64,000 bases of DNA from an uncultured bacterium (GCA_938031185.1 CALHGX010000023.1:1715-65714); one strand, 5' to 3'. Numbered from the stretch's first letter, positions 7,144-41,251 are shown. Numbers and translations are program-made. The notes: generated by a model not told the origin, from the sequence alone.

Positions 7144-7371
7144 ATGCAGGCGTCGGTTATCACGCAGTTCATGCAGCTTAACGGGGCGATTGTTGGCAAG
7201 GCGGATCGCTCGCGCTGGTTTCGGCTGCCGCGCCGTGAAGTCGTGACGGTGGGCAGCATGCTCGGCAGCCGATTGATTGGCCGGGGCGGGCTGCGAATCG
7301 TCAGCACCGCCTTGAGCGAGGAAGCGCTTCGGCGTCAGGCCCGGCGTCATGCACAAGCCGGTTCTTCTTGA
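7144..7371 (+). CDS. Putative 75-aa basic small protein between mraZ and rsmH
   Basis: AAGGAG SD 6 nt before ATG 7144; fills the mraZ-rsmH gap; no recognisable domain. Confidence 0.35.
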   Translation: MQASVITQFMQLNGAIVGKADRSRWFRLPRREVVTVGSMLGSRLIGRGGLRIVSTALSEEALRRQARRHAQAGSS

Positions 7372-8281
7372 GGGGGTCATGGCGCGGCTGAAGGTTCGGC
7401 CGGGCGGACGGTATGTGGACGCCACGGCCGGCGGCGGCGGCCATGCGCGAGCCATCGCCGAGCGGATGGGCCCGGCCGGTCGTCTGCTGGCGTTGGATCA
7501 GGACGAAACGGCCTTGGCTCGAGCCAGAGCGCGGCTCGAGGGAACGCCCGGAACGTGCGTGTTCGCGCGGGCGAATTTCGCGGAACTGGAGGAGGTTGGT
7601 CTCGAAAACGGCTTTGTCGAGGTGGACGGCGTGCTGATGGATTTGGGGGTTTCGTCCGATCAGCTTGACGAGGCGGAACGGGGGTTCAGTTTTCTGCGCG
7701 ACGGCCCTTTGGACATGCGGATGGATCGGCGGCGGCGCCGAACGGCGGCGGACCTGGTGAACACGCTGGAGGAGTCGGAATTGAGGGACCTGCTGCGAGC
7801 GGGCGGAGAAGAGCGGGAGGCGGGCCGCATCGCGCGCGCCATCGTGCGGGCTCGTCCGCTAGCGCGCACGCTGGAGCTGGCGGAAGTGGTCCGCCGCGCG
7901 AAGCGAACGGAGCGGGGCAGACGGATTGATCCGGCCACGAAGACATTTCAGGCGCTGCGCATGGCGGTCAACGAAGAGTTGGCGGCGTTGGAGCGCGGAC
8001 TGGAGGGAGCGCTGCGGCTCTTGCGGCCCGGCGGACGACTGCTGGTCATTTCGTTCCACAGCCTGGAGGACCGCCTCGTGAAGCGGTGTTTTCTCGCGCA
8101 TGCGGGGCGATGGGAGGCCTTGGAAGCCGGCGGGCGGCGATGGGTGGCCGCCGAGCCGGAAGTGATTTTGGTGGACAGGAAACCGGTGACGCCTTCGCCG
8201 GAAGAGGTGCGGGAGAATCCTCGTGCGCGATCGGCCCGAATGAGGACGGCGCAGCGGAAGGAAGGAGCGAGTCATGCGTAG
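7349..8281 (+). CDS. rsmH: 16S rRNA m4C1402 methyltransferase RsmH (MraW)
   Basis: HKPVLL, DATAGGGGHA, DLGVSS, RGFSF, PLDMRM, FQALR, ISFHSLEDR, NPRARSA. Confidence 0.97.
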   Translation: MHKPVLLEGVMARLKVRPGGRYVDATAGGGGHARAIAERMGPAGRLLALDQDETALARARARLEGTPGTCVFARANFAELEEVGLENGFVEVDGVLMDLGVSSDQLDEAERGFSFLRDGPLDMRMDRRRRRTAADLVNTLEESELRDLLRAGGEEREAGRIARAIVRARPLARTLELAEVVRRAKRTERGRRIDPATKTFQALRMAVNEELAALERGLEGALRLLRPGGRLLVISFHSLEDRLVKRCFLAHAGRWEALEAGGRRWVAAEPEVILVDRKPVTPSPEEVRENPRARSARMRTAQRKEGASHA

Positions 8282-29975: not shown

Positions 29976-32126
29976 TTATTTCTCCGTCATACTCCAGACA
30001 CCGTCCCAGGCCGCGGGTGGATGCGCCAGCAGTTCGCGGCAGCGGGCTGCGAAGGCCGCGGAGGGCGGATCCGAAGCAGCGCCGTTCTCGAACCAGCGCA
30101 GCGCCTCATCGAAGCGTCCCGCGTAGTAGGCGGCGAGCCCCTGTGCGTAGCGGTCTAATTTCTCGCGATCGGCGGCCTGCTCCGGCGAAAGCGGCTCGAA
30201 CACGCGCACGGGTTCCTTGCGCCCCACCACGCGGATCAGTCCTATTTCGCGGGTGGGGATCGCCTCCCCCGTTTGACGCCGCGTGAACTCCGAAATCAAA
30301 ATCGAAGTGCCGAAGATTTTGTTGATGCCCTCCAGCCGCGAGGCGAGGTTGCCCGCGTCGCCCAGGAACGTGTAGTTGAAGCGCTGGCGGGAGCCCATGT
30401 TGCCGACGACGACGGGACCGGTATTGATGCCGATGCGCGCGTAGAGGTCGCGGCCGACTCGTTCGCGAAAGACCGGGCGCAGCTCGGCGAGGCGGCGCTG
30501 GCAGGCGAGCGCGGCGCGCACGGCCCGGATGGCGTGGTCCTCCTGCGCGAGCGGGGCGTTCCAGAAGGCGATTACGGCATCGCCTTCATACTTGTCCACC
30601 GTGCCGCCTTCCGCATAGATGATCTCGGTCATGGCCGTGAGGTAGTCGTTGAGCAGCGCGGTCAAGGTTTCCGGATCGAGCGCCTCCGACAACCCCGTGA
30701 ACCCCTGAACGTCAGAAAAATAGATCGAAAGCGTGCGCTGTTCGCCTCCGAGCCGGAGCCGCTCGGGATTGCGCACCAGCTCCTCGATGACGACGGGGCT
30801 GAGGTACTGGCGGAACGCGCCCTTGATGAAGCGCTTCTGGCGGCCCTCGGTGGCGTAGTTGACGACCAGCGCGCAGAGCATGGCCGGCAACGCCGCGGCC
30901 AGGGCGGGCACGACGGGCAGCCACAGGCCGGCCGCATAGTACCACAGGCCCGCCAGGGGCGGCAGAGACAGAAAGAGGAGGAACCATGCGACGGTCCATG
31001 CGGCCGAAGCAGCGGCTCGAAGGGCCATGCCGGCCAGAATGGCCAGGGCCAGGACGAAAACAGCACGCCAAAGCAGCGGCGTTTCCCGGATGAAATCCCC
31101 CGAGAGCAGGTTGTCGAGAAAGGTGGCGTGGATTTCCACACCAGGATACACCGCCGCCACCGGCGAGGACTTCAGGTCAAAGAGCCCCGGCGCCGTGAAG
31201 CCGACAAAAACGTACTTGTTTCGGAACTGATCGAGCGGCACCAGCGAATCCCCGCCTTCGCGAAGGCGTAGTTCCGACTCGATCACGGACGCAATGCTCA
31301 CGGTGGCATGGGTTTGGGAAGGCCCCCGAAAACGCAGGATGGCGAAGCCGTTTCGGTCAAGAGGAACGGCTTTCTGGCTGGCGGCGAAGATGCGGCGCGC
31401 TTCGATGCGAATTCGAGGCGCGGAATTTGCGGCAGCCCATGCGCCCATTCCCAAGGAAGGCAATGGGCGGCCATCGAAGAGCACGAGCGGTCGCAGCCGC
31501 CGATAGATGCCGTCGGAATCCGGGTTGCCGAAAACGGTGGCGAGCATGCGCGCGCGGGAAACGATCGGCGGGGTGGGAAAAGTGGCGCGGGGCACGGAGA
31601 ATATGGCGGCAACGGCGTTGGACGCGACGCTCAACTCAATGGCGGGTTCCGGCGCTTCGGAAGGCCACCGGGTTGCGTCACCCGAGGTCTGGCCGGCGAA
31701 GACGGCGATGGTGGAACCCGGCGTCGTGGCGAGGGCGGCGGCGAACGCTTCGTCGTCCTCCACACCGTAGACAGACGGCTCGGAGTAGATGACGTCAAAG
31801 ACGACCGCACGGGCGCCGGCGCGCCGGCAGAAGTCGGTCACCGCGCCGTAGACTTCGCGGGGCCAGGGCCAGGACCAGCCCCGCCGGGCACCCCAGTCGA
31901 GACTGTTCTGATCGAGAAAAACGAGCTGAATCTCTCCGGTGGCTTTGCCGGGCTTGCAGAGGAGGGAGGCGCGCCAGTCCCACGTGCGGGCCTCCCAACG
32001 TTCCAGCCAGCCGTTGCGTTCGACGATCAGCGAAATGGCGGCGGCGAGCAGCCCGATCAGGGCGCCTTGAAGCAGGCGGCCGGCGATGGCGCGGGTGGGC
32101 GTCTTTTCTGGCGGGTGAGGCCCCAT
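29976..32126 (-). CDS. CHASE2-domain class III adenylate cyclase
   Basis: WPWPR, DSDGIYRR, PGVEIHA (CHASE2); 3 TM; FSDVQGFT, DKYEGDA, YTFLGDAGNLASRLEG. Confidence 0.93.
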   Translation of the reverse strand: MGPHPPEKTPTRAIAGRLLQGALIGLLAAAISLIVERNGWLERWEARTWDWRASLLCKPGKATGEIQLVFLDQNSLDWGARRGWSWPWPREVYGAVTDFCRRAGARAVVFDVIYSEPSVYGVEDDEAFAAALATTPGSTIAVFAGQTSGDATRWPSEAPEPAIELSVASNAVAAIFSVPRATFPTPPIVSRARMLATVFGNPDSDGIYRRLRPLVLFDGRPLPSLGMGAWAAANSAPRIRIEARRIFAASQKAVPLDRNGFAILRFRGPSQTHATVSIASVIESELRLREGGDSLVPLDQFRNKYVFVGFTAPGLFDLKSSPVAAVYPGVEIHATFLDNLLSGDFIRETPLLWRAVFVLALAILAGMALRAAASAAWTVAWFLLFLSLPPLAGLWYYAAGLWLPVVPALAAALPAMLCALVVNYATEGRQKRFIKGAFRQYLSPVVIEELVRNPERLRLGGEQRTLSIYFSDVQGFTGLSEALDPETLTALLNDYLTAMTEIIYAEGGTVDKYEGDAVIAFWNAPLAQEDHAIRAVRAALACQRRLAELRPVFRERVGRDLYARIGINTGPVVVGNMGSRQRFNYTFLGDAGNLASRLEGINKIFGTSILISEFTRRQTGEAIPTREIGLIRVVGRKEPVRVFEPLSPEQAADREKLDRYAQGLAAYYAGRFDEALRWFENGAASDPPSAAFAARCRELLAHPPAAWDGVWSMTEK

Positions 32127-33040
32127 CAGATGCTCTTCGCGAACTCTGCGAAACGTTCCCGTCGCTGCGCGGGCGCCGGGGGATTCGCGGCGCCAGTGAT
32201 TTGACGGCGCGCCTCGGCGGCTCGGGCCGAGGGGTCGGGGTGTGTCCGGGCGAATCCCGGTCCGCCCGGTTTCTGGCGGCGGGCCATTTCGTTCAGCATG
32301 GCGGTGAGGCCGTTGGGATCGTAGCCGGCGCGGCGCAGAATGGCGATGGCGGTGGCGTCCGCCTGCCGCTCGAAGGAGCGGGAGTAACCGCTGTTGACGA
32401 GGGTGGCGGTGATGTCCTGGACGGCGCCTTCAAAGGTCTTGGTCAATTCGGCCAGTTCCTGGCCGCCGAGGTTCTTGGCGGATTCCGAGGCCAGCACCAT
32501 GAGGGCGGAGGTGAGACGGCTGCGGCGGATGGCCTGCAGGCCATGGCGATGCTGGACGTGCGCGATTTCGTGGGCGAGGACGGCGGCCACGGCGTCTTCG
32601 TCGGGGCAACAGCGCAGCAGGCCGCGGGAAACCAGGATGAAACCGCCCGGAGCCGCAAAGGCATTGATTTCGTCCGTGTCGAGAATCAGGAAGCGGTAGC
32701 CGCCGAAGGTTTCCGGCCGGTCGGAGAACAGCGCCAGCGCCTGGCCCAGGACATTCACGTAGTCGTTGGCCTTTTCATGGGCATACGGCTGGTACATGTT
32801 CAGAATGGTGGCGGCGACGGTGCGGCCGATGTAGTACTCCTGCTCCGGCGTGATGGACTCGAAGGTGCGGCCCACCGCTTCGGTGGAGCGCTTGATGGAG
32901 CCGGCCTGCTCTTCGGTGATGACGCCGGTGGCCGCCGCGACCGAGGCGCCGACCTCGGACACTTCACGCAGGGCGCGGCATCCGGCGGCGGTCAAGGCCG
33001 CCAGGCCGATCAGGAAGAGGCGGCGGGCATTCGTGTTCAT
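32126..33040 (-). CDS. M48 family zinc metallopeptidase lipoprotein
   Basis: AAGC lipobox, EQEYYIGR, INAFAAPGG, HEIAH, YSRSFERQAD, THP. Confidence 0.92.
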   Translation of the reverse strand: MNTNARRLFLIGLAALTAAGCRALREVSEVGASVAAATGVITEEQAGSIKRSTEAVGRTFESITPEQEYYIGRTVAATILNMYQPYAHEKANDYVNVLGQALALFSDRPETFGGYRFLILDTDEINAFAAPGGFILVSRGLLRCCPDEDAVAAVLAHEIAHVQHRHGLQAIRRSRLTSALMVLASESAKNLGGQELAELTKTFEGAVQDITATLVNSGYSRSFERQADATAIAILRRAGYDPNGLTAMLNEMARRQKPGGPGFARTHPDPSARAAEARRQITGAANPPAPAQRRERFAEFAKSI

Positions 33041-33525
33041 GGATGTCCTCCCGTCGCGAGGCCGCCTTCGGCCAGAAATGCGGCCAGCCGGGCGGGCGGA
33101 ACCGCCTGGCGTTCCATTCGATCCACCCAGGAAAAATCCACGTTTCGATTGGCGGCGCGGAACTGTTTTTCCACGTCCGCGTTGAAGCCCTTGCCGGCGA
33201 GAGCCAGCTCGCCGCTTGATGCGGCCTGCGCGGGGGTTTCCCCGGGCCGAAGCGTCACCACGCTGCGGGTGAGGGCCGAGTTGTGCACCCACCCGGTCAG
33301 CCGACCGTCTTCGGTCCGCACCCGGACCCAGCTTCCGCTTCGTTCGTCCACCGCGACCCGCTGTCCGTAAGCGAGCGCGCCGGCGACCGTGGCGAGGAAG
33401 GAGGGTGTTGTGCGAACGTCCGCCGACCGGACCTGGACGCTTAAGGTTTCCGCGGCGAACGCGCCGCGCGCCGCGACGAGCATGACGACCGCAGTGGTGA
33501 GGGCCAATCGCGCGAGCCGGATCAT
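33037..33525 (-). CDS. Secreted SH3b-domain protein
   Basis: Signal peptide, VRTTPS, WVRV...GWVH, conserved-looking ALAGKGFNADVE tail. Confidence 0.85.
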   Translation of the reverse strand: MIRLARLALTTAVVMLVAARGAFAAETLSVQVRSADVRTTPSFLATVAGALAYGQRVAVDERSGSWVRVRTEDGRLTGWVHNSALTRSVVTLRPGETPAQAASSGELALAGKGFNADVEKQFRAANRNVDFSWVDRMERQAVPPARLAAFLAEGGLATGGHP

Positions 33526-33554
33526 AGGCGCTTTTCCTCCTGCCTTTTGGGGGC

Positions 33555-33583
33555 ATGTTAGCAGACGGCGGAACGCAGTTCAA
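33555..33583 (-). promoter_or_regulatory. Candidate sigma70 promoter for the SH3-M48-cyclase-queF unit
   Basis: TTGAAC-17 nt-TAACAT with an extended -10 TG; AGGAGG SD downstream. Confidence 0.55.
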
Positions 33584-34584
33584 CCGTTTGCCGTGCCGCC
33601 GTCGGGCGCTATGCCTTCGCGCCGCCACACGTCGAGCATCAGTTCATAGCGCTGGAGGCGCATGCCGGTGTAGATGCAGTTGCTCGTCGAAAAAATGTAG
33701 CCGCCGCCGGGCATGCCGTGGCGGAGCGCGTAGCGGGCGGAGGCGATGACCTCCTCGTCCGTGCCGGTGTCGAGCATTCCGCAGCTCACATTTCCCATCA
33801 GGCACACCTCGTTCCCATACTGGCGCTTGACCTCGGCGATATCCACGCCGCCCTGGGGGTCGAGGGAGTGGAGCACATGCGGGCGGGCCTGGATGAGCTG
33901 GTCGAGAATGGGCATGATGTTGCCGTCCGTGTGCTTGATCGTGTAGAAGCCCATATCGCGCAGGGCGCGAATGGTGGCGGCGAGGTAGGGCGTGACGAAT
34001 TCCGAGAAGAGCGAAGGGCTGAGGAACGGACCGTTGTTGAAGCAGTAGTCCGAGCACATGCCGAAGCCGTCCACGCCGCCATGGCGGTGCACCATTTCCG
34101 CCACGCGCAGAGCGTCATCCACCGCGGCCTGGGCTTCCGCCTTGAGCTGCTCCGGCTCGTCGGCGATGCGCCACGAGAACTTCTCCATGCTGTTTCCACC
34201 GGGAATCGCAAAGGTGGGGTCGAGATAGAGCATGAGGAAATAGCGATCGCCGGTCTTTTCCCGGATCAGGTCCACGAGCCGCAAGCCTTCTTCGGTGCTG
34301 GTGGGGGGCGCGGGATGGACGAAGATGGCGCTGTGTTCGAACCGCTCGGCGGTCGCGATGTAGATGTCCGCCATGTCGCGGCGGTGCAGTTCCCGCTCCT
34401 TTTCCTCCATCTGCTGCCATTGGTGGTAGGAGCGGTGATGGGGATGCACCTTGCCCAGCGCCTCCATGGTCAGGTAGAACACCAGCTCGAAGTGGGGCAC
34501 GCGGCCCGGGATGGGGCGGTGTTCAATAGCGCGGATGATGGTTTCGCGAGGCGTGAGTTTTTCAGCGGACGCCATGGTGTTCAT
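33580..34584 (-). CDS. Uroporphyrinogen decarboxylase (URO-D/MtaA)-fold protein
   Basis: TPRE start, SDY, KHTDGNIMPILD, GNV, GGGYIFSTSN. ATGA overlap with the upstream ATP-grasp-GNAT gene. Confidence 0.85.
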   Translation of the reverse strand: MNTMASAEKLTPRETIIRAIEHRPIPGRVPHFELVFYLTMEALGKVHPHHRSYHQWQQMEEKERELHRRDMADIYIATAERFEHSAIFVHPAPPTSTEEGLRLVDLIREKTGDRYFLMLYLDPTFAIPGGNSMEKFSWRIADEPEQLKAEAQAAVDDALRVAEMVHRHGGVDGFGMCSDYCFNNGPFLSPSLFSEFVTPYLAATIRALRDMGFYTIKHTDGNIMPILDQLIQARPHVLHSLDPQGGVDIAEVKRQYGNEVCLMGNVSCGMLDTGTDEEVIASARYALRHGMPGGGYIFSTSNCIYTGMRLQRYELMLDVWRREGIAPDGGTANG

Positions 34585-36140
34585 AGCAGGGAAAGCTCCT
34601 CCGACAGGTCCTTGGCGCATACAATCTTATCGTCCCCGGGCGCGTAGAAATCGCGAAGTCGCGCCACGATTTCGTAGGCTGCGTCGCGGTAGAAACCGCG
34701 CGTGGATTGATATCGCGGCTGGCTCGAGGTTTCAATGATGGCCATGCGGCCGCCTTTGAGTCGGATCTGGCTTTCGGCGAATTCGAGCAAGGCCTTGCCG
34801 AGGCCACGGCGTTGGTGGGATGGCGCCACCACGATCCAGTAGATGTCGTAGCTGCCCAGCGTGCACGGGATGGGGCCGAAACAAATCCATCCGACCGGTT
34901 GCGCCTGATCCTCCACGACGAAAGACTGATAGTGCCCGAGTTCGCCCTCTTGGGCAGCTTGTTCGAGGACCTCGGCGGCCACTTCGACCTCGTCGTCCCG
35001 GAAAAAGCCGGTATGGCGGACGAGCGAAAGGACGGCGTCGAGGTCTCCGGCCCGCATCCGGCGAATGTTCGCCTCGCCCCGAGCCGTTTTCGGCTTGGCC
35101 GTCCGGCCGGATCCCGCCGCCGGTCGAGGCCGTCGGTGGTGGGCGTTTTCCACCAGGGCGGCCACGAAATCCTCGAATGGAATACCGGCGGCGTGAAGCG
35201 CCCCAACGAATCCGGTGTCCGGCGCAATGTCGGGATTGGGATTTACTTCCAAGATGAAAAGGCGGCCTTCCGAATCGGCCCGAAAATCCACCCGGGCGTA
35301 GTCCTGGCAATCCAGCGTGCTCCAGGCGGCCAGCGCATGACGGCGGAGTTGTTCCGCCAGGGCCTGATCCAAGGGCGCTGGAACGACCCGCCGGGTGTGC
35401 TGGTATTCGAAAGAGTCTGGAAGCCATTTGGCGGCGTAGTCTACGATGCGGGGGCGGTCGCGGCCGAAATCGTCGAACACCACTTCCGAGGGCGGCAAGA
35501 TCTCCACCTCGCGTCCGCGCTGATACAGGGCGACGTTCAGTTCCCGTTCGCCGACAAAAGACTCGATGAGCGCCGGTTGACGAAAATTGGCATGCACGCG
35601 CGCCACAGCCCGCCGAAGTTGTTCGAGATCTTCCGGCACAACGGACTGGGCGTCAATGCCCTCGCTGGCGTCGGTTTGAAGAGGCTTGACGATCCAGGGC
35701 GACGGGGGGAGCCGCCCCGTGTCCCACCCGTCGGACACGGGCGCCAGCACGCCCGGGGGCACCGGCAGCCCCGCTTCCCGCAGGACCGCCTTGGCGCGCC
35801 ACTTGTCGTTAGCCAGCGACTGGCAGGCGCTGGTGTTGCCGGTGCAGGATTTGCCGAAGGCCATGCAGATAGCAGGCACGTAGGCCGCGTCGGCGGGGCG
35901 ATTCGGAAAGCTTTCGACCAGATTGAAGAGAATACGCTCGGGCGTGGCCGCCAACAGGGGCGGCAGTTCGCAGAGATCGGACAACGCGGCTACGCGGTGG
36001 GATGCGCCGAGCCGGTCGAGGGCCGCGGTCACCGCCTTGACCTCCTCCAGCACGCCCACCTCGCTCTCGATGCCGTGGCCCGAGGCGGCGGCGCGCGGCG
36101 CGTTGTGAATAATCAGGACCGGTGGAAGTTTTCCGTGCAT
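34581..36140 (-). CDS. D-Ala-D-Ala-ligase-like ATP-grasp protein fused to a C-terminal GNAT acetyltransferase
   Basis: FNLVES, IVKP..TDASEGI, ESFVGERE, DYARVDFR, EVNPNPD; then IYWIVV...QRRGLGKAL, IETSS, RGFY. Confidence 0.88.
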   Translation of the reverse strand: MHGKLPPVLIIHNAPRAAASGHGIESEVGVLEEVKAVTAALDRLGASHRVAALSDLCELPPLLAATPERILFNLVESFPNRPADAAYVPAICMAFGKSCTGNTSACQSLANDKWRAKAVLREAGLPVPPGVLAPVSDGWDTGRLPPSPWIVKPLQTDASEGIDAQSVVPEDLEQLRRAVARVHANFRQPALIESFVGERELNVALYQRGREVEILPPSEVVFDDFGRDRPRIVDYAAKWLPDSFEYQHTRRVVPAPLDQALAEQLRRHALAAWSTLDCQDYARVDFRADSEGRLFILEVNPNPDIAPDTGFVGALHAAGIPFEDFVAALVENAHHRRPRPAAGSGRTAKPKTARGEANIRRMRAGDLDAVLSLVRHTGFFRDDEVEVAAEVLEQAAQEGELGHYQSFVVEDQAQPVGWICFGPIPCTLGSYDIYWIVVAPSHQRRGLGKALLEFAESQIRLKGGRMAIIETSSQPRYQSTRGFYRDAAYEIVARLRDFYAPGDDKIVCAKDLSEELSLL

Positions 36141-37123
36141 CAGCGTACACGCGACAACGCGCCTTCAAGAATCGTGCGGATGAGGTCTGAATAGGTTACC
36201 CCCTCCTGCGCGGCGATCAGGGGCAGATCGGAATGGTCCGGGTGCAGGCCGGGCAGAGGATTGACCTCCATAAACGCCGGCAAACCGTGCCGGTCGAGCC
36301 GGATGTCGACCCGGCCGGCGTCGCGGCACTCCAGGACGCGATAGCTTTCCAGCGCGAGCCGTTCCACGGCGCCGATCAACTCGTCCCGGTGCGGCCGCAC
36401 ATAGCGAACCAGTTGCTCGCAATGCTCCTTGACGTGGTAGGAATAGATGTCCGTCTGGGCGTGTTCGAGGATTTCCACTTCCATCACGCCGAGCACCCGC
36501 GCCGACGGCCCTTCACCGACCAGGCCGACGGTGAACTCACGGCCGGGCAGGTATTCCTCGATCAGGACCGGTTGCCGAAACCGGTCGATGAGCGCCCGGC
36601 AGGCGGGGACAAGATCCTCGGGCTGTTCCACTCGGGATGTGTGGTCAATGCCCTTGCCGGTGCCTTCGGCGAGGGGTTTGACGAAAAGCGGAAACTCCAG
36701 GCTGATATTGTTCAAGTGGGCCGGGTCTCGCGCCACATGGAATCGGGGCGTGTGCAGTCCTGCCGACTGCACGAGCCGTTTGGCAACGGACTTGTCCAAC
36801 GTGACGGCGCAGACCAAAGGGTCAGAGAAAGTATAGGCGATGCCGTACGCATCCAGGAGACAGGGCACTTGGGATTCGCGACCTCGGCCGGCCACGCCCT
36901 CCGCGATATTGAAGACGGCATCCCACCGGTCTCCTTTTACGAGCCGGGCGCAGAGGTTTTTCACGTGTCCGATCCGATCGGTTCGACAGCCGAGGGTTCG
37001 AATGGTTTGTTCCAGCGCGTTGATTGTGGCGTCCGAATCGAATTCCGCGACGGCCTCGGGGGAGAAACCCATGGCGAGATACTCGCTTCGCAGGTCATAA
37101 GTCAGGCCGATCAACGCGTTCAT
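36140..37123 (-). CDS. D-Ala-D-Ala-ligase-like ATP-grasp protein
   Basis: FNIAEG, RESQVP, LDK, FVKPLAEGTGKGI, EEYLPGREFTV, RDAGRVDIR, EVNPLPGL. Confidence 0.88.
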   Translation of the reverse strand: MNALIGLTYDLRSEYLAMGFSPEAVAEFDSDATINALEQTIRTLGCRTDRIGHVKNLCARLVKGDRWDAVFNIAEGVAGRGRESQVPCLLDAYGIAYTFSDPLVCAVTLDKSVAKRLVQSAGLHTPRFHVARDPAHLNNISLEFPLFVKPLAEGTGKGIDHTSRVEQPEDLVPACRALIDRFRQPVLIEEYLPGREFTVGLVGEGPSARVLGVMEVEILEHAQTDIYSYHVKEHCEQLVRYVRPHRDELIGAVERLALESYRVLECRDAGRVDIRLDRHGLPAFMEVNPLPGLHPDHSDLPLIAAQEGVTYSDLIRTILEGALSRVR

Positions 37124-37244
37124 GGCCGGTTATGAGACCACACGCATCCGCGCGTTGTCAAGGCGCGCGCCGGAGGGGACCGGTTTGGACGGTGTGTGGC
37201 ATAGGGCGCAGCGCGGCGGATCGTTGCCGGACGGCCGGAGGCGA

Positions 37245-38582
37245 TTAGAATCCGGCGAATTCGGTTTGGCGCGGGTCTCCGGGAGAATATTCGCGATGGC
37301 CATTTCGCTGGCGTACCGTTACGGCCGGGGCGATGGCCGAGAGGCGTCCCGAGGCGAGCCCCCACACGCCCGTCGCGGCCCTCTTTGGAAATGCGCGTCG
37401 GGCGGTTTCCGGGACGATCGGCTCGGGATAGTTCACCAACAAGCCCTCGTAGTTCCTCAATACCGTGTGCGTGGGACTGGACGAGACGATGTAGTTCGGG
37501 AGCAGGGGAATCTTGCCGCCGCCGTGCGGCGCGTCCACGACGAACTGCGGGATGGCCAAGCCGCTCAGACGCCCGCGGAGGTACTCCATGATTTCGATGC
37601 CGCGGCTCAACGGGGTGCGGAAATGCTCGATGCCGCGGACGAGATCGCATTGGAAGAGGTAGTAGGGACGCACTCGCATGCGAACCAACGCGCGGCAGAG
37701 CTCTTCCATGATGAGGGGCGAATCGTTCACTCCGCGCAGGAGCACGGATTGGTTTCCGAGGGGGATGCCCGCGTCCGCCAGCCGCGTGCAGGCGGCGGCC
37801 GATTCGGCCGTCACTTCCTGTGGATGATTGAAATGGGTGTTGATCCAAAGGGGGTGATACTTGCGGAGCATGCGCGTGAGTTCTTCGGTGATGCGCTGGG
37901 GCAGGACCACCGGGGCGCGGGTGCCCAAGCGGATGATTTGCACGCTCGGCACGGCGCGCAGAGCCGCCAGGATGCGCTCCAGCAGAGAGGTGGACATGGT
38001 GAGCGGATCGCCGCCGGAAACCACCACGTCCGTGATTTCCGGGTGCGCGGCGAGGTATTGGGCGACCTCGCGCAAACGGGCCACGGAAAGAGAAGTCTCC
38101 CGGGTGCCGGCCACCCGCTTGCGGGTGCAATGGCGGCAATACATGGCGCACATGGTGGTGGAAATGAGCAGTGCGCGGTCCCGGTAGCGATGCACGAGGC
38201 CGGGCACGGGCATGTCCGCCTCCTCTTCCAGCGGATCGGGCGTGAGGAAGCTCGGATCGCAAAGTTCCTGCGCCTGCGGGACGCTCATGCGGAAGATGGG
38301 GTCCTGATAGCCCGGGACGCGAATCAGCGAAGCATAGTAGGGCGTGATCGCCAGGGGATAGCGTTCCACCACTTTCTCGATCGCGCGATGACCCCGCAAG
38401 GGGGGAAACTGCTCCGTCAGTTGCGCAAAGGACCGGATGCGGTTTCTTATCTGCCAGCGCCAGTCATCCCAGCGGGCATTTGCGCGAACGGGCGCCGGCG
38501 GCGTCTCGCTCGTCAATGCGGATGGAAGCGGAGGTTCGTCGGCGGGGGACTGTATTGACGCGGCGGCTTCCTGGCGATCCAT
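37245..38582 (-). CDS. KamA-family radical SAM enzyme, lysine 2,3-aminomutase-like
   Basis: HRYRDR, CAMYCRHCTRKR, SGGDPL, HFNHP, NQSVLLRGVND, PYYLFQCD, VDAPHGGGKIP (PLP Lys). Confidence 0.93.
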   Translation of the reverse strand: MDRQEAAASIQSPADEPPLPSALTSETPPAPVRANARWDDWRWQIRNRIRSFAQLTEQFPPLRGHRAIEKVVERYPLAITPYYASLIRVPGYQDPIFRMSVPQAQELCDPSFLTPDPLEEEADMPVPGLVHRYRDRALLISTTMCAMYCRHCTRKRVAGTRETSLSVARLREVAQYLAAHPEITDVVVSGGDPLTMSTSLLERILAALRAVPSVQIIRLGTRAPVVLPQRITEELTRMLRKYHPLWINTHFNHPQEVTAESAAACTRLADAGIPLGNQSVLLRGVNDSPLIMEELCRALVRMRVRPYYLFQCDLVRGIEHFRTPLSRGIEIMEYLRGRLSGLAIPQFVVDAPHGGGKIPLLPNYIVSSSPTHTVLRNYEGLLVNYPEPIVPETARRAFPKRAATGVWGLASGRLSAIAPAVTVRQRNGHREYSPGDPRQTEFAGF

Positions 38583-38693
38583 GGAGGCATCCTTTCTGCG
38601 TGGTGAGGGGTTTGTTATATTCCTGCGGGAGTTTTTCAAGCAACCGGCGCATGGGGCGCACGCGACGGACATTCTTTGAGCGCTGTTCATCGG

Positions 38694-39323
38694 CTATTCC
38701 AGCCAAGAGGCCACGCCATCAAGCAGCAGGCGGGGCACATCGTCCGCCAGCGCGGACAGCTCCTCCTTGTTCATCCCCAGCATGGCCAACCCCAGCATGC
38801 CCAGGGGCAGGCCGACGGCGGCGCACGCCAGACGGCGGAGATGGCCGGCATCCGCGTCGGCCTTGGCACGTTCGCTCAACATTTTTTCGATCGCGGCCAA
38901 GTGGGTGAGAAAGGGTTGTTCCATGGTGGGTGCCGTTCCACGGCGAAGGCGGCTCATCACCCGCGCCTGAAAGAGGATGGCCACCTCGTCGGGATGAGCG
39001 TGAAAGAAAGCGGCATGAGTCCGGGTGATGTGGTGGAAAGCGTCTCGGAGCGTGGCGGCCTCGGACCATCCAGGGCGCAGCGTTGCCTTCAACTGTTCGA
39101 ATACCCCCTCGACCAAGGTTATCAGCAGCGCGTACTTGTCCTCAAAATGGCGGTAGAACGTCCCTTTGCCAATGTCTGCCCGTTCCGTAATATCCTCGAT
39201 GGTGGCCGCATCCACTCCTACTTCGGCGAAAACGGCCAAGGCGGATTCCAAAAGCCTTCGCCGAGTATTTCCGGCTCTCCGGGCTGTACGCCCTTTTTGG
39301 GTATTTGCTGGCTGATCAATCAT
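38694..39323 (-). CDS. TetR/AcrR family transcriptional regulator
   Basis: ATIEDITERADIGKGTFYRHFEDK helix-turn-helix. Confidence 0.93.
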   Translation of the reverse strand: MIDQPANTQKGRTARRAGNTRRRLLESALAVFAEVGVDAATIEDITERADIGKGTFYRHFEDKYALLITLVEGVFEQLKATLRPGWSEAATLRDAFHHITRTHAAFFHAHPDEVAILFQARVMSRLRRGTAPTMEQPFLTHLAAIEKMLSERAKADADAGHLRRLACAAVGLPLGMLGLAMLGMNKEELSALADDVPRLLLDGVASWLE

Positions 39324-39349
39324 ATACTTCAGCGAATGATCTGTCGCTG

Positions 39350-39479
39350 GCGACCATACAGTCGCTTGCGGCTAAAAGGTCGTGACATATTGGGTCATGC
39401 CATCCATGAACAACAATATATGGACATTAGTGTGCGATTCATTTGCGAACAAAATAGTCATAAGCGACCAAACGGTCAA
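39350..39479 (-). promoter_or_regulatory. tetR promoter with two related palindromic operator candidates
   Basis: TTGACC-17-TATTTT (39479-39451); GCGACCATACAGTCGC at 39350-39365 and GCGACCAAACGGTCAA at 39464-39479. Confidence 0.55.
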
Positions 39480-39641
39480 TACAGAATTTTAATCTTTTTC
39501 AAACACGGTATGGAGACCGGCGACGATTCTCTCCGATGAGAAAAAATAACGCTTCATCAGGTCCGCAAACTGCTGTAATAAGTCACTAGTCTGATGGATG
39601 TGGCGCGCGTTGGTTCGACTCGTGCCGGCGGGGAGGCACCG

Positions 39642-40535
39642 ATGAAGGATGATCGGATGAGTGACAAGAGCGATTCGGAGAGCCAGGTGTGGAATGCGAT
39701 TGCCGTTTTTGAACAGATACTGCAGACACTGCCGAATGATCGTGTTTCGTTGGAAGCCCTCTCGCATGCCTATGAGCAAGTTGGGGATGCGGCCAAGGCA
39801 CGGGAGTATTTCCTGCGGCTGGCCGGCATTGTGTTGGAGGAAAAGGACTTGGATGCCGCACGGCAGCTATCCGAAAACCTCCGCCGATATGATGACGGCG
39901 ACCCGGCTGTTTCGGAAATGCAGCGCCGCATTCGAGAAAGCTTGCGGCAGACGCCGTCCCCTGTCGCGCCAGGGCCGGAGACATCCGCCCGACAGGGCAA
40001 GGCACAGGAGCGGGCCGGCGTTACGGAGGATCTCAAACGACAAAAGGCCAATATTGCCGCGGAATTGAGTTTTGCCTGGGCCCTCTACCAGGCGGGCGAA
40101 CTGACGCAGGAGGAGTACGCGACAGTGGCGCAGGATCTCACGGAGGTTTCGATGGCGCCCGGCGGCGTGACGATTTCCACGCTGCACGCGCTTCAGGACC
40201 GTAACTCCGCCAGTCTGGAGCGGGCCATTTGTTTCGCGGCTCGGGAACGCGGCACACCGGTGTTGCCGCTGCAGTTTTTTGAGGTGCAGGAGAAGACCGC
40301 GCAACTATTGCCGCTGGAGTACATGATCCGCAACGGCGTCATGGTGTTCGATCTGATTGGGAATGAGGCGCTGGTGGCGATCATGAATCCCTTCAACACG
40401 TCGTTGATGGAGGAAGTGGAAGCCAGGCTGCGCCGGAAATGCCACTTTTATCTGGCCCTGCCGGCGGATTTTGACGCCGTGATCGGCCAGATCAAGAGCA
40501 AGGTGGAAGGCGCCGCTCCTTCAGTGAGCGGATGA
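39642..40535 (+). CDS. TPR plus GspE/PilB N-terminal (MshEN-like) domain protein without an ATPase
   Basis: N-terminal TPR-like helices; C-terminal LLPLEY...LVAIMNPFN...EVEARL typical of T2SSE_N; GGAGG SD. Confidence 0.7.
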   Translation: MKDDRMSDKSDSESQVWNAIAVFEQILQTLPNDRVSLEALSHAYEQVGDAAKAREYFLRLAGIVLEEKDLDAARQLSENLRRYDDGDPAVSEMQRRIRESLRQTPSPVAPGPETSARQGKAQERAGVTEDLKRQKANIAAELSFAWALYQAGELTQEEYATVAQDLTEVSMAPGGVTISTLHALQDRNSASLERAICFAARERGTPVLPLQFFEVQEKTAQLLPLEYMIRNGVMVFDLIGNEALVAIMNPFNTSLMEEVEARLRRKCHFYLALPADFDAVIGQIKSKVEGAAPSVSG

Positions 40536-40543
40536 CGCGCCGC

Positions 40544-41251
40544 CTATTGCGAGGAACCGCCCACGCGGAGCATACGCCGCTCGCCTTTGTAGGACAGCAC
40601 CGCGCCGGCGGCCGAGACGGACTCAAGCCGGACGCCGTCAATTTCTTCACCGACCACGACCAGTACACCGTTCAAACGGGCGGCGCCGCGTCCGGATGCG
40701 CCGCCGATGACCCCCGTGAGCTGCAAAAACGGCCAGACCACCGTTTCGCGCGGGGGCGGGGCGGGTGCGCGCGGCGAAACGGCGCGCTGTGGAGCAGCGG
40801 GGCTGGCGGCGGTCGGCGGCGAGGGCGTTTCAGAAGGCTTCTCACTGTCGCCGGCTGCTGCATCGGCGGGCGGTGGCGCAGAAGCCGGAGCCGGCAGCGG
40901 AACGGCAGGGGGCGCCTCGGATGCGGGCGGGGGCCGCATCACCAAAGCCATGCCGCTGGCGACGATGCGGGAGAGAAAGTTTTCTTCCGCCGAAGCCGCG
41001 GGCGACGCTCCGCCGGTCGCCGGCGGCCAGGACAGCCATCCCATTCGGTTCAGCAGAAGCGCGCCCAAGGTGGCCAGTAACACGAAAAACAGGATCGTAA
41101 AGATGACCCGTTTCGCAGAGCCTCTTGGAGCGGCCGGCTCAGGGGCGGCCGTCGGTGCCGCTGCGGGAAGCGGCGGCGGCTCCGGAGGGGGCTTGTTTTT
41201 CAATCCCCATTGGCTCCGGTTCTTCTTGAGCGTCTCATCTATCAAGCTCAT
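40544..41251 (-). CDS. GspB/ExeB-like bitopic Pro-rich protein
   Basis: MSLIDETLKK start, one TM, Pro/Ala linker, C-terminal LQLTGV...ARLNG...VGEEIDGVRLESV beta domain. Confidence 0.6.
   Translation of the reverse strand: MSLIDETLKKNRSQWGLKNKPPPEPPPLPAAAPTAAPEPAAPRGSAKRVIFTILFFVLLATLGALLLNRMGWLSWPPATGGASPAASAEENFLSRIVASGMALVMRPPPASEAPPAVPLPAPASAPPPADAAAGDSEKPSETPSPPTAASPAAPQRAVSPRAPAPPPRETVVWPFLQLTGVIGGASGRGAARLNGVLVVVGEEIDGVRLESVSAAGAVLSYKGERRMLRVGGSSQ

Follow-up and report, generated by a model that had tools for sequence, protein, structure and literature searches.

A conserved tetR-kamA-ddl1-ddl2::gnat operon that may build an N-acetylated amide or peptide on beta-lysine

What does a bacterium make when the gene of a lysine 2,3-aminomutase stands beside two ligase genes of the D-Ala-D-Ala ligase (Ddl) family and an acetyltransferase, behind a TetR-type regulator? 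The question is raised by a stretch of 64,000 nucleotides (nt) from an uncultured bacterium (GCA_938031185.1, CALHGX010000023.1:1715-65714), referred to here as the window, which belongs to an assembly of 2.47 Mb that is 89% complete. An initial annotation of the window had proposed a five-gene beta-lysine peptide pathway at 33580-39323, and a scan for open reading frames (ORFs) finds the five co-oriented genes there, all on the minus strand. The conserved unit is smaller than first proposed and consists of four genes, tetR-kamA-ddl1-ddl2::gnat, which represent a real, conserved and undescribed pathway composed of known enzyme families. On balance, we favor the reading that this four-gene operon makes a small N-acetylated amide or peptide based on beta-lysine and is gated by TetR, as predicted from the comparisons described below. 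New in this analysis are a candidate operator, an accessory deacetylase, a residue map of the ligases, the exclusion of a URO-D-fold gene and a link to elongation factor P (EF-P). The features of the locus are as follows, with lengths in amino acids (aa) or nt and E denoting the expectation value.

38694-39323, minus strand: TetR-family regulator, first gene of the predicted operon (209 aa; PF00440, E 1e-14)
37245-38690, minus strand: KamA-family lysine 2,3-aminomutase (longest ORF 481 aa; LAM_C and Radical_SAM domains)
37124-37244, minus strand: spacer between kamA and ddl1 (121 nt)
36140-37123, minus strand: Ddl1, Ddl-like ATP-grasp ligase 1 (327 aa; PF07478, E 3e-28)
34581-36140, minus strand: Ddl2::GNAT fusion gene (519 aa; PF07478 at residues 148-331, GNAT families at residues 380-485)
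35106-36140, minus strand: Ddl2, the part of the fusion that is Ddl-like ATP-grasp ligase 2 (residues ~1-345; PF07478, E 9e-24)
34581-35090, minus strand: GNAT acetyltransferase domain of the fusion (residues ~351-519; Acetyltransf_1, _7 and _10)
33580-34584 (longest ORF 33580-34620), minus strand: URO-D-fold protein (~334 aa from the ATGA overlap; PF01208)
39451-39479, minus strand: promoter-like site (TTGACC, 17-nt spacer, TATTTT), ~130-155 nt upstream of the tetR start
39455-39470, no strand assigned: candidate TetR operator TGGTCGCTTATGACTA, a 16-bp palindrome with the consensus T[A/G]GTCA-N4-[C/T]GACTA

The translational couplings claimed earlier are both exact: the Ddl2 start overlaps the ddl1 stop in a TGATG at 36138-36142, and the start of the URO-D-like gene overlaps the stop of Ddl2::GNAT in an ATGA at 34581-34584. 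The acetyltransferase had been counted as a gene of its own; it is instead the C-terminal domain of ligase 2, because PF07478 and the GNAT families share one 519-aa ORF.

The extent of the unit follows from its neighborhoods in other genomes. Homologues of the Ddl2::GNAT protein are numerous, with 863 at E <= 1e-3 among 8000 candidates scored, and none of the 120 matches listed for the fusion protein carries an informative name. We examined the best 80 loci out of 510 species genomes encoding a relative of the fusion (one genome per species), matching neighbors by tblastn and counting for each gene only the loci with enough flanking sequence. These 80 loci span at least 8 phyla, with sources in Verrucomicrobiota/Kiritimatiellia, Planctomycetota, Lentisphaerae, Acidobacteriota, Myxococcota, Nitrospirae, Chloroflexota, Neomarinimicrobiota and Eisenbacteria; the nearest related loci come from Verrucomicrobiota, Kiritimatiellia and the 'PVC group'. 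Ddl1 immediately precedes the fusion in 67 of 75 loci, KamA is adjacent in 55 of 64, and a TetR homologue is found upstream of kamA in 30 of the 60 with room to show one. Clustering of 867 flanking ORFs gives the same three families (Ddl at 77 loci, KamA at 54 and TetR at 27), while the next cluster reaches at most 8 and no other partner family recurs. As only three flanking families recur, the unit has no transporter of its own, nor a racemase, decarboxylase or amidotransferase. Five other genes of the window were sought by tblastn at the 80 related loci and none of them was found at any: those of the URO-D-like protein, the M48 peptidase, the CHASE2 cyclase, QueF and the TPR-MshEN protein.

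The unit also persists where its genes come apart. Five of nine loci in which KamA is unlinked were examined; KamA is found elsewhere in all five genomes and adjoins Ddl1 in three, which means that in those three the module has only been divided into two parts. GNAT is a separate small gene directly after Ddl2 in four loci (L067, L072, L076 and L077), and the fusion also matches in two pieces in three relatives (G001, G007 and G012). Fused forms of at least 910 aa were absent at E <= 1e-20, a result that the search itself rates as weak evidence. The 30 nearest genomes all belong to the same order as the window and to other families. The fusion or its split form (E <= 1e-110) is present in 28 of them, the two genomes without it belonging to one family, and KamA is on the contig of the fusion in 24 of these 28 relatives. 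Sampled evenly, the phylum has the module in only 4 of 150 genomes; it is thus near-universal in the order of the window and patchy elsewhere. Synteny of kamA-ddl-ddl-GNAT, which the initial annotation had put forward as a way to check its proposal, is strongly conserved across phyla and survives both splitting and relocation of the genes.

The aminomutase retains the features of a lysine enzyme. KamA aligns with the solved clostridial lysine 2,3-aminomutase 2A5H at E 4e-135 and keeps the CxxxCxxC cysteines, R134, D293 (QCD), D330 (VDAP) and K337 (GGGK) in 2A5H numbering. These seven positions are invariant in all 55 cassette-linked KamAs. The motifs read earlier from the window (CxxxCxxC, the GGGKIP lysine and the QCD and VDAP aspartates) are confirmed. 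In 2A5H, D293 and D330 bind the epsilon-amine of lysine, R134 binds its carboxylate, and K337 is the lysine that binds pyridoxal phosphate. Among NCBIfam models, KamA passes the KamA subfamily model TIGR00238 (304 bits, cut-off 199). The closest model is that of AblA-type lysine 2,3-aminomutase (TIGR03820), with 495.3 bits against a cut-off of 525.4, which is not passed; the glutamate-type and arginine-type models give 425 and 352 bits, and the EpmB model TIGR03821 gives 238.9 bits, below its cut-off of 369.3. Translation probably starts at the ATG at 38582 (M37), which follows AAAGGA, since most of the homologues listed begin at residue 37 of the window protein. The assembly contains exactly one KamA-family gene. 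A Pfam search of the genome for lysine 5,6-aminomutase gave no match, as it also did in the control genomes.

A different KamA-family protein was seen in G002, a genome of the same order from the family that lacks the cassette. This protein of 360 aa (L097:1529-2611) has no LAM_C domain, scores about equally on the arginine, lysine, glutamate and EpmB models, and adjoins AmmeMemoRadiSam system proteins A and B. This protein may stand in for EpmB in that family.

The two ligases share the Ddl fold and depart from Ddl at its D-Ala contacts. The best Ddl model, NF002378 (cut-off 243), gives 156 bits for Ddl1 and 99 bits for Ddl2, and all Ddl and Van models stay far under their cut-offs for both proteins. 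We aligned 68 Ddl1 and 64 Ddl2 family members with MAFFT, together with Escherichia coli DdlB and the canonical Ddl of the genome, which sits elsewhere, on contig C24. Both ligases retain the ATP- and Mg-binding residues K97, K144, E180, E187, K215, R255, D257, E270 and N272, and the catalytic residues are kept in nearly all members of both families. Five DdlB positions distinguish the families as listed here, where the Ddl2 counts at G276 and L282 refer to the 53 sequences without a gap in that column.

DdlB E15: E in 62 of 68 Ddl1 family members; S in 62 of 64 Ddl2 family members
DdlB S150: T in 67 of 68 Ddl1; A in 58 of 64 Ddl2
DdlB Y216: E or D in 64 of 68 Ddl1; W in 60 of 64 Ddl2
DdlB G276: G in 68 of 68 Ddl1; D in 51 of 53 Ddl2
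DdlB L282: D in 68 of 68 Ddl1; G in 53 of 53 Ddl2

The positions S150, Y216 and S281/L282, the D-Ala contacts of DdlB, are T, E and S/D in Ddl1 and A, W and T/G in Ddl2. An independent HMMER alignment to a solved Ddl recovers the two Ddl1 changes at Y216 and L282 as K-E and S-D pairs. The retained ATP/Mg residues, the changed D-Ala contacts and the scores below all Ddl cut-offs together support the view that these are ligases other than D-Ala-D-Ala ligases, and both are predicted to be active enzymes with new substrates. The acidic side chains at the place where Ddl holds a carboxylate may hint at a cationic amine. The GNAT domain, for its part, matches the solved protein 2R7H (E 3e-32 over 157 residues); its sole match among NCBIfam models is RimI at E 9e-7, far under the cut-off, and it has no AblB match.

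It is worth noting that the genome (G000) encodes a third Ddl-like ATP-grasp paralogue of 349 aa on contig C18 (L083:6090-7139, plus strand). It has a DYAAKW-like motif as in Ddl2 and no GNAT, lies beside a TPR protein and is convergent with a Peptidase_Mx-like gene (7219-8256, minus strand). Weak matches of this kind (E about 1e-33) occur in nearly all relatives.

Eleven of the 80 loci, from Acidobacteriota, Planctomycetota, Eisenbacteria and Neomarinimicrobiota, contain one more gene of ~580 aa between kamA and ddl1, at the position of the 121-nt spacer in the window. All eight accessory proteins scanned have a histone-deacetylase Pfam domain, and four of the eight have an N-terminal GNAT domain, which is not a close paralogue of the cassette GNAT (E 0.28). 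The best solved relatives of the deacetylase are acetylpolyamine amidohydrolases (6PHR, 2e-74; 9GKZ, 9e-68; 3MEN, 5e-65; 3Q9B, 7e-64), while single-domain HDAC6, protein-type deacetylases and HDAH match at 1e-32 to 1e-37. These similarities suggest that an alkyl-amine in the product may be reversibly acetylated.

The regulator combines an N-terminal helix-turn-helix domain (PF00440) with a conserved palindrome in its own promoter, both features of TetR repressors; the protein matches no NCBIfam equivalog at cut-off. We compared the 250 nt upstream of tetR across 26 tetR-linked loci. The palindrome is present with at least 10 of 12 consensus positions in 22 of the 26, against a shuffle mean of 0.32 of 26. 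The site at 39455-39470 is the only one in the 64-kb window at one mismatch or fewer (0.16 expected) and the only place in the assembly where both strands match at that threshold. Exact matches were found in 16 of 88 fetched loci, one per locus, and those checked (L003 and L085) lie just upstream of tetR. Fourteen other places in the assembly match with one mismatch on a single strand only, and we read them as chance. The palindrome falls within the spacer and the -10 element of the promoter-like site, which was called solely by its match to the consensus, in a scan that gave 4 sites in the region where 1.4 were expected. An autoregulated TetR operon that is released by a ligand would be expected to have a palindrome placed in this way, and we regard the one found here as a candidate operator.

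Taken together, these observations point to the following scheme. The operon tetR-kamA-ddl1-ddl2::gnat would be transcribed from the promoter upstream of tetR, and TetR would probably shut this promoter through the 16-bp palindrome across the spacer and -10 element, judging from the conservation and position of the motif. KamA, by its conserved active-site residues, would convert L-lysine to beta-lysine. Each divergent Ddl-type ATP-grasp enzyme would then form one amide bond via an acyl-phosphate intermediate, and the GNAT domain on ligase 2 would acetylate a free amine. The outcome would be a small N-acetylated amide or peptide with beta-lysine as its building block. Since no other precursor enzyme, transporter, racemase or amidotransferase recurs, the partner substrates would be beta-lysine itself or common metabolites. 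The acidic residues at the D-Ala contacts and the accessory deacetylase of some lineages suggest a substrate or product with a free or acetylated alkyl-amine, which may be polyamine-like or a capped zwitterionic solute. There is probably a second sink in the genome of the window and in most of the order, where the same KamA would feed EF-P modification. Much more tentatively, as a possibility we consider doubtful, the module would make a previously undescribed class of beta-lysine amides, cationic or reversibly N-acetylated, that serve anaerobes as a polyamine surrogate or capped solute; the fused GNAT and, in some lineages, the amidohydrolase-like deacetylase would switch the charge of the compound, and in this order one TetR-gated aminomutase would feed both the compound and EF-P. 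If this is true, EF-P modification is tied to a regulated small-molecule pathway.

Several points weigh against the proposal of a beta-lysine product under TetR control. KamA falls just under the AblA equivalog cut-off, and its stereochemistry and substrate are predictions. The MAFFT map to DdlB is weak in the N-terminal domain, which makes the E15 column uncertain. Tandem-domain HDAC6 chains match the accessory deacetylase comparably to the amidohydrolases (6e-64 over two stretches), and the accessory gene does not occur in the genome of the window, which has just a 30-34% identical HDAC on contig C53. TetR is seen in just half of the loci able to show one. The operator is a motif prediction found only through comparison of loci, and a repeat tool run on 39300-39600 gave no inverted repeat of at least 10 nt. 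Finally, the only KamA of the genome may serve mainly EpmA and EF-P.

This last point deserves to be weighed as an alternative in its own right, in which KamA is primarily the EpmB equivalent for EpmA and EF-P, and the ligases and GNAT either just deal with excess beta-lysine, by buffering, storage or detoxification, or have a separate function. The initial annotation had set EF-P aside because no epmA or efp gene is present, which holds within the window; the same assembly, however, encodes efp and epmA as translationally coupled genes on contig C28 (L096:6224-7830, minus strand), with EpmA at 331 bits (cut-off 287), EF-P at 219 bits (cut-off 186) and a KPGKG loop in EF-P. The exclusion of EF-P use by elimination thus fails genome-wide, as efp and epmA are present together with a single KamA-family gene. 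No epmB-type gene was found near efp-epmA or elsewhere in the assembly, at its 89% completeness. In the order, a KamA-family match is present in 31 of 31 genomes, the window's included; the 28 relatives with the cassette have one such gene apiece, and EpmA passes its cut-off in 22 of the 31. From this pattern, the KamA of the window probably also supplies beta-lysine to EpmA for EF-P. That this would be its primary role is nevertheless rather improbable in our view: KamA scores far better on the AblA than on the EpmB model, it is linked to the ligases in most loci, and a TetR-repressed supply would be odd for a constitutive translation factor. The cassette and KamA are also kept without EpmA above cut-off in 9 of the 28 relatives and in 3 of 5 further genomes examined (G032, G034 and G035), and because such genomes retain KamA with the ligases, we believe that KamA is more than a stand-in for EpmB. 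The EF-P role and the small-molecule role of KamA are not mutually exclusive.

Other explanations keep the enzymes together and change their target. The ligases and GNAT might modify a protein or ribosomal peptide instead of a free small molecule, by RimK-like tailing and RimI-like acetylation. RimI is the only NCBIfam match of the GNAT domain, RimK-type ATP-grasp enzymes do modify proteins, and the Bacillus pair AcuA/AcuC, composed of a GNAT and an HDAC-type enzyme, acts on a protein. We nevertheless consider this unlikely, as the ligases are Ddl-type and not RimK-type, no candidate substrate gene recurs beside them among the clustered flanking ORFs, and the accessory deacetylase is nearest to acetylpolyamine amidohydrolases that act on small molecules, with far weaker matches to single-domain protein-type enzymes and HDAH. 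It is more improbable still that the two paralogues make an alternative dipeptide for inducible, VanA-like remodeling of peptidoglycan. They do belong to the Ddl/Van superfamily, the operon includes an inducible regulator, and position 216, which is changed in both ligases, is known to determine specificity in Van ligases; yet no VanH, VanX or MurF-like partner recurs in the flanking ORFs, the canonical Ddl is encoded elsewhere, all Ddl and Van models remain far from their cut-offs, and we know of no precedent in wall synthesis for ligases so tightly linked to the formation of beta-lysine and to an acetyltransferase. The chance that the pathway has five genes in this lineage, with the URO-D-fold protein tailoring the ligase product as a decarboxylase or methyltransferase, is likewise very small. 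Its gene is co-oriented with the cassette, overlaps the fusion stop and is probably co-transcribed with the cassette here, but it is missing from all 80 related loci. Orthologues in seven relatives (52-68% identical) never share a contig with the fusion, and two of these relatives lack the cassette altogether; the orthologues have no neighbors in common, and the other 26 ORFs of the window between 20 and 50 kb have no match near them. The family is expanded in this genome (8 copies, the window's and 7 paralogues on seven other contigs), PF01208 covers only the C-terminal half of the protein, and neither hemE (19 bits against 303) nor mtaA_cmuA (41 against 235) is passed. The one match to a PDB sequence is weak (CdmB, 1.5e-4), and the translation, read by eye, lacks the His-x-Cys motif with which MtaA-type methyltransferases bind zinc. 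Contrary to its earlier inclusion in the pathway, the URO-D-like gene is a lineage-specific neighbor outside the conserved module.

The surroundings of the cassette can be described briefly. GC content is 62-66% across the cluster, as in the flanks, and is lower only in the intergenic stretch upstream of tetR. An Rfam scan of 32000-41000 gave no family at E <= 1. Among sequencing runs, none of RNA was found to contain this stretch, and a single DNA run, which may be its source, covers it completely. Downstream of the cluster, the longest ORF of an M48 peptidase (32126-33628, minus strand) runs 49 nt into the URO-D-like gene; this overlap is probably an artefact, as an ATG near 33525 after GGAGGA looks like the real M48 start. 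A CHASE2-domain adenylate/guanylate cyclase at 29976-32126 and a TPR and MshEN-domain protein at 39594-40535, divergent from tetR, lie in the two flanks, and neither is conserved beside the cassette elsewhere.

Returning to the proposed beta-lysine pathway, knowledge of its product would extend the list of uses of beta-lysine, which now comprises fermentation, EF-P modification, N-epsilon-acetyl-beta-lysine and the products of non-ribosomal peptide synthetases. Substrates could then also be given to two unassigned branches of the D-Ala-D-Ala ligase family that are now annotated as cell-wall enzymes. The conserved operator provides a handle for finding the inducing signal, and the pattern of a single KamA with efp-epmA raises the question of the source of beta-lysine for EF-P in these PVC bacteria.

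How does the module compare with known systems? We found no paper on the kamA, twin-Ddl and GNAT gene set in the open literature that was searched, with subscription journals and bioRxiv supplements outside its range. In Ddl and Van ligases, the fold, the PF07478 domain and all ATP/Mg and acyl-phosphate residues are the same as in both cassette ligases, whereas the cassette ligases stay under every cut-off, have S150, Y216 and L282 replaced, and occur in a genome with its own canonical Ddl. ATP-grasp ligation of beta-amino acids has precedents in carnosine synthase and blasticidin S. The EpmB/EpmA system also draws beta-lysine from a KamA-family enzyme, and epmA and efp are present in the same genome; the cassette KamA is, however, AblA-like with LAM_C and stands apart from efp-epmA, and the ligases are ATP-grasp enzymes rather than LysRS-like. 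The structural-genomics entry 2R7H, named 'putative D-alanine N-acetyltransferase', represents a stand-alone, split form of the family of the cassette GNAT; the one paper found to name it deals with an unrelated toxin.

Two pathways that make acetylated solutes come closer. The AblA/AblB pathway makes N-epsilon-acetyl-beta-lysine (PMC3543383). Like the pathway predicted for the cassette, it couples a lysine 2,3-aminomutase, for which AblA is the nearest model, to acetylation by a GNAT enzyme. The cassette GNAT, however, is not AblB-type; the AblB-type acetyltransferase TIGR03827 has no match in the whole assembly (89% complete), while control genomes matched. The cassette also adds a TetR and two ATP-grasp ligases, and from the latter at least two further amide bonds would be expected. 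In the pathway of N-acetylglutaminylglutamine amide (NAGGN), Ngg performs acetylation and ligation in one chain to give a capped dipeptide solute, with a dedicated adjacent repressor (PMC8070244). An ESM Atlas cluster of the Ngg type combines a RimK-family ATP-grasp domain with GNAT (score 0.90) and serves as a lead only. The cassette resembles Ngg/AsnO in joining domains for N-acetylation and ATP-dependent peptide-bond formation in one polypeptide next to a regulator, but differs in that its ATP-grasp domain is Ddl-type (PF07478), its GNAT is C-terminal, beta-lysine would be its dedicated precursor and it has no amidotransferase. The module belongs to neither the AblA/AblB nor the Ngg pathway.

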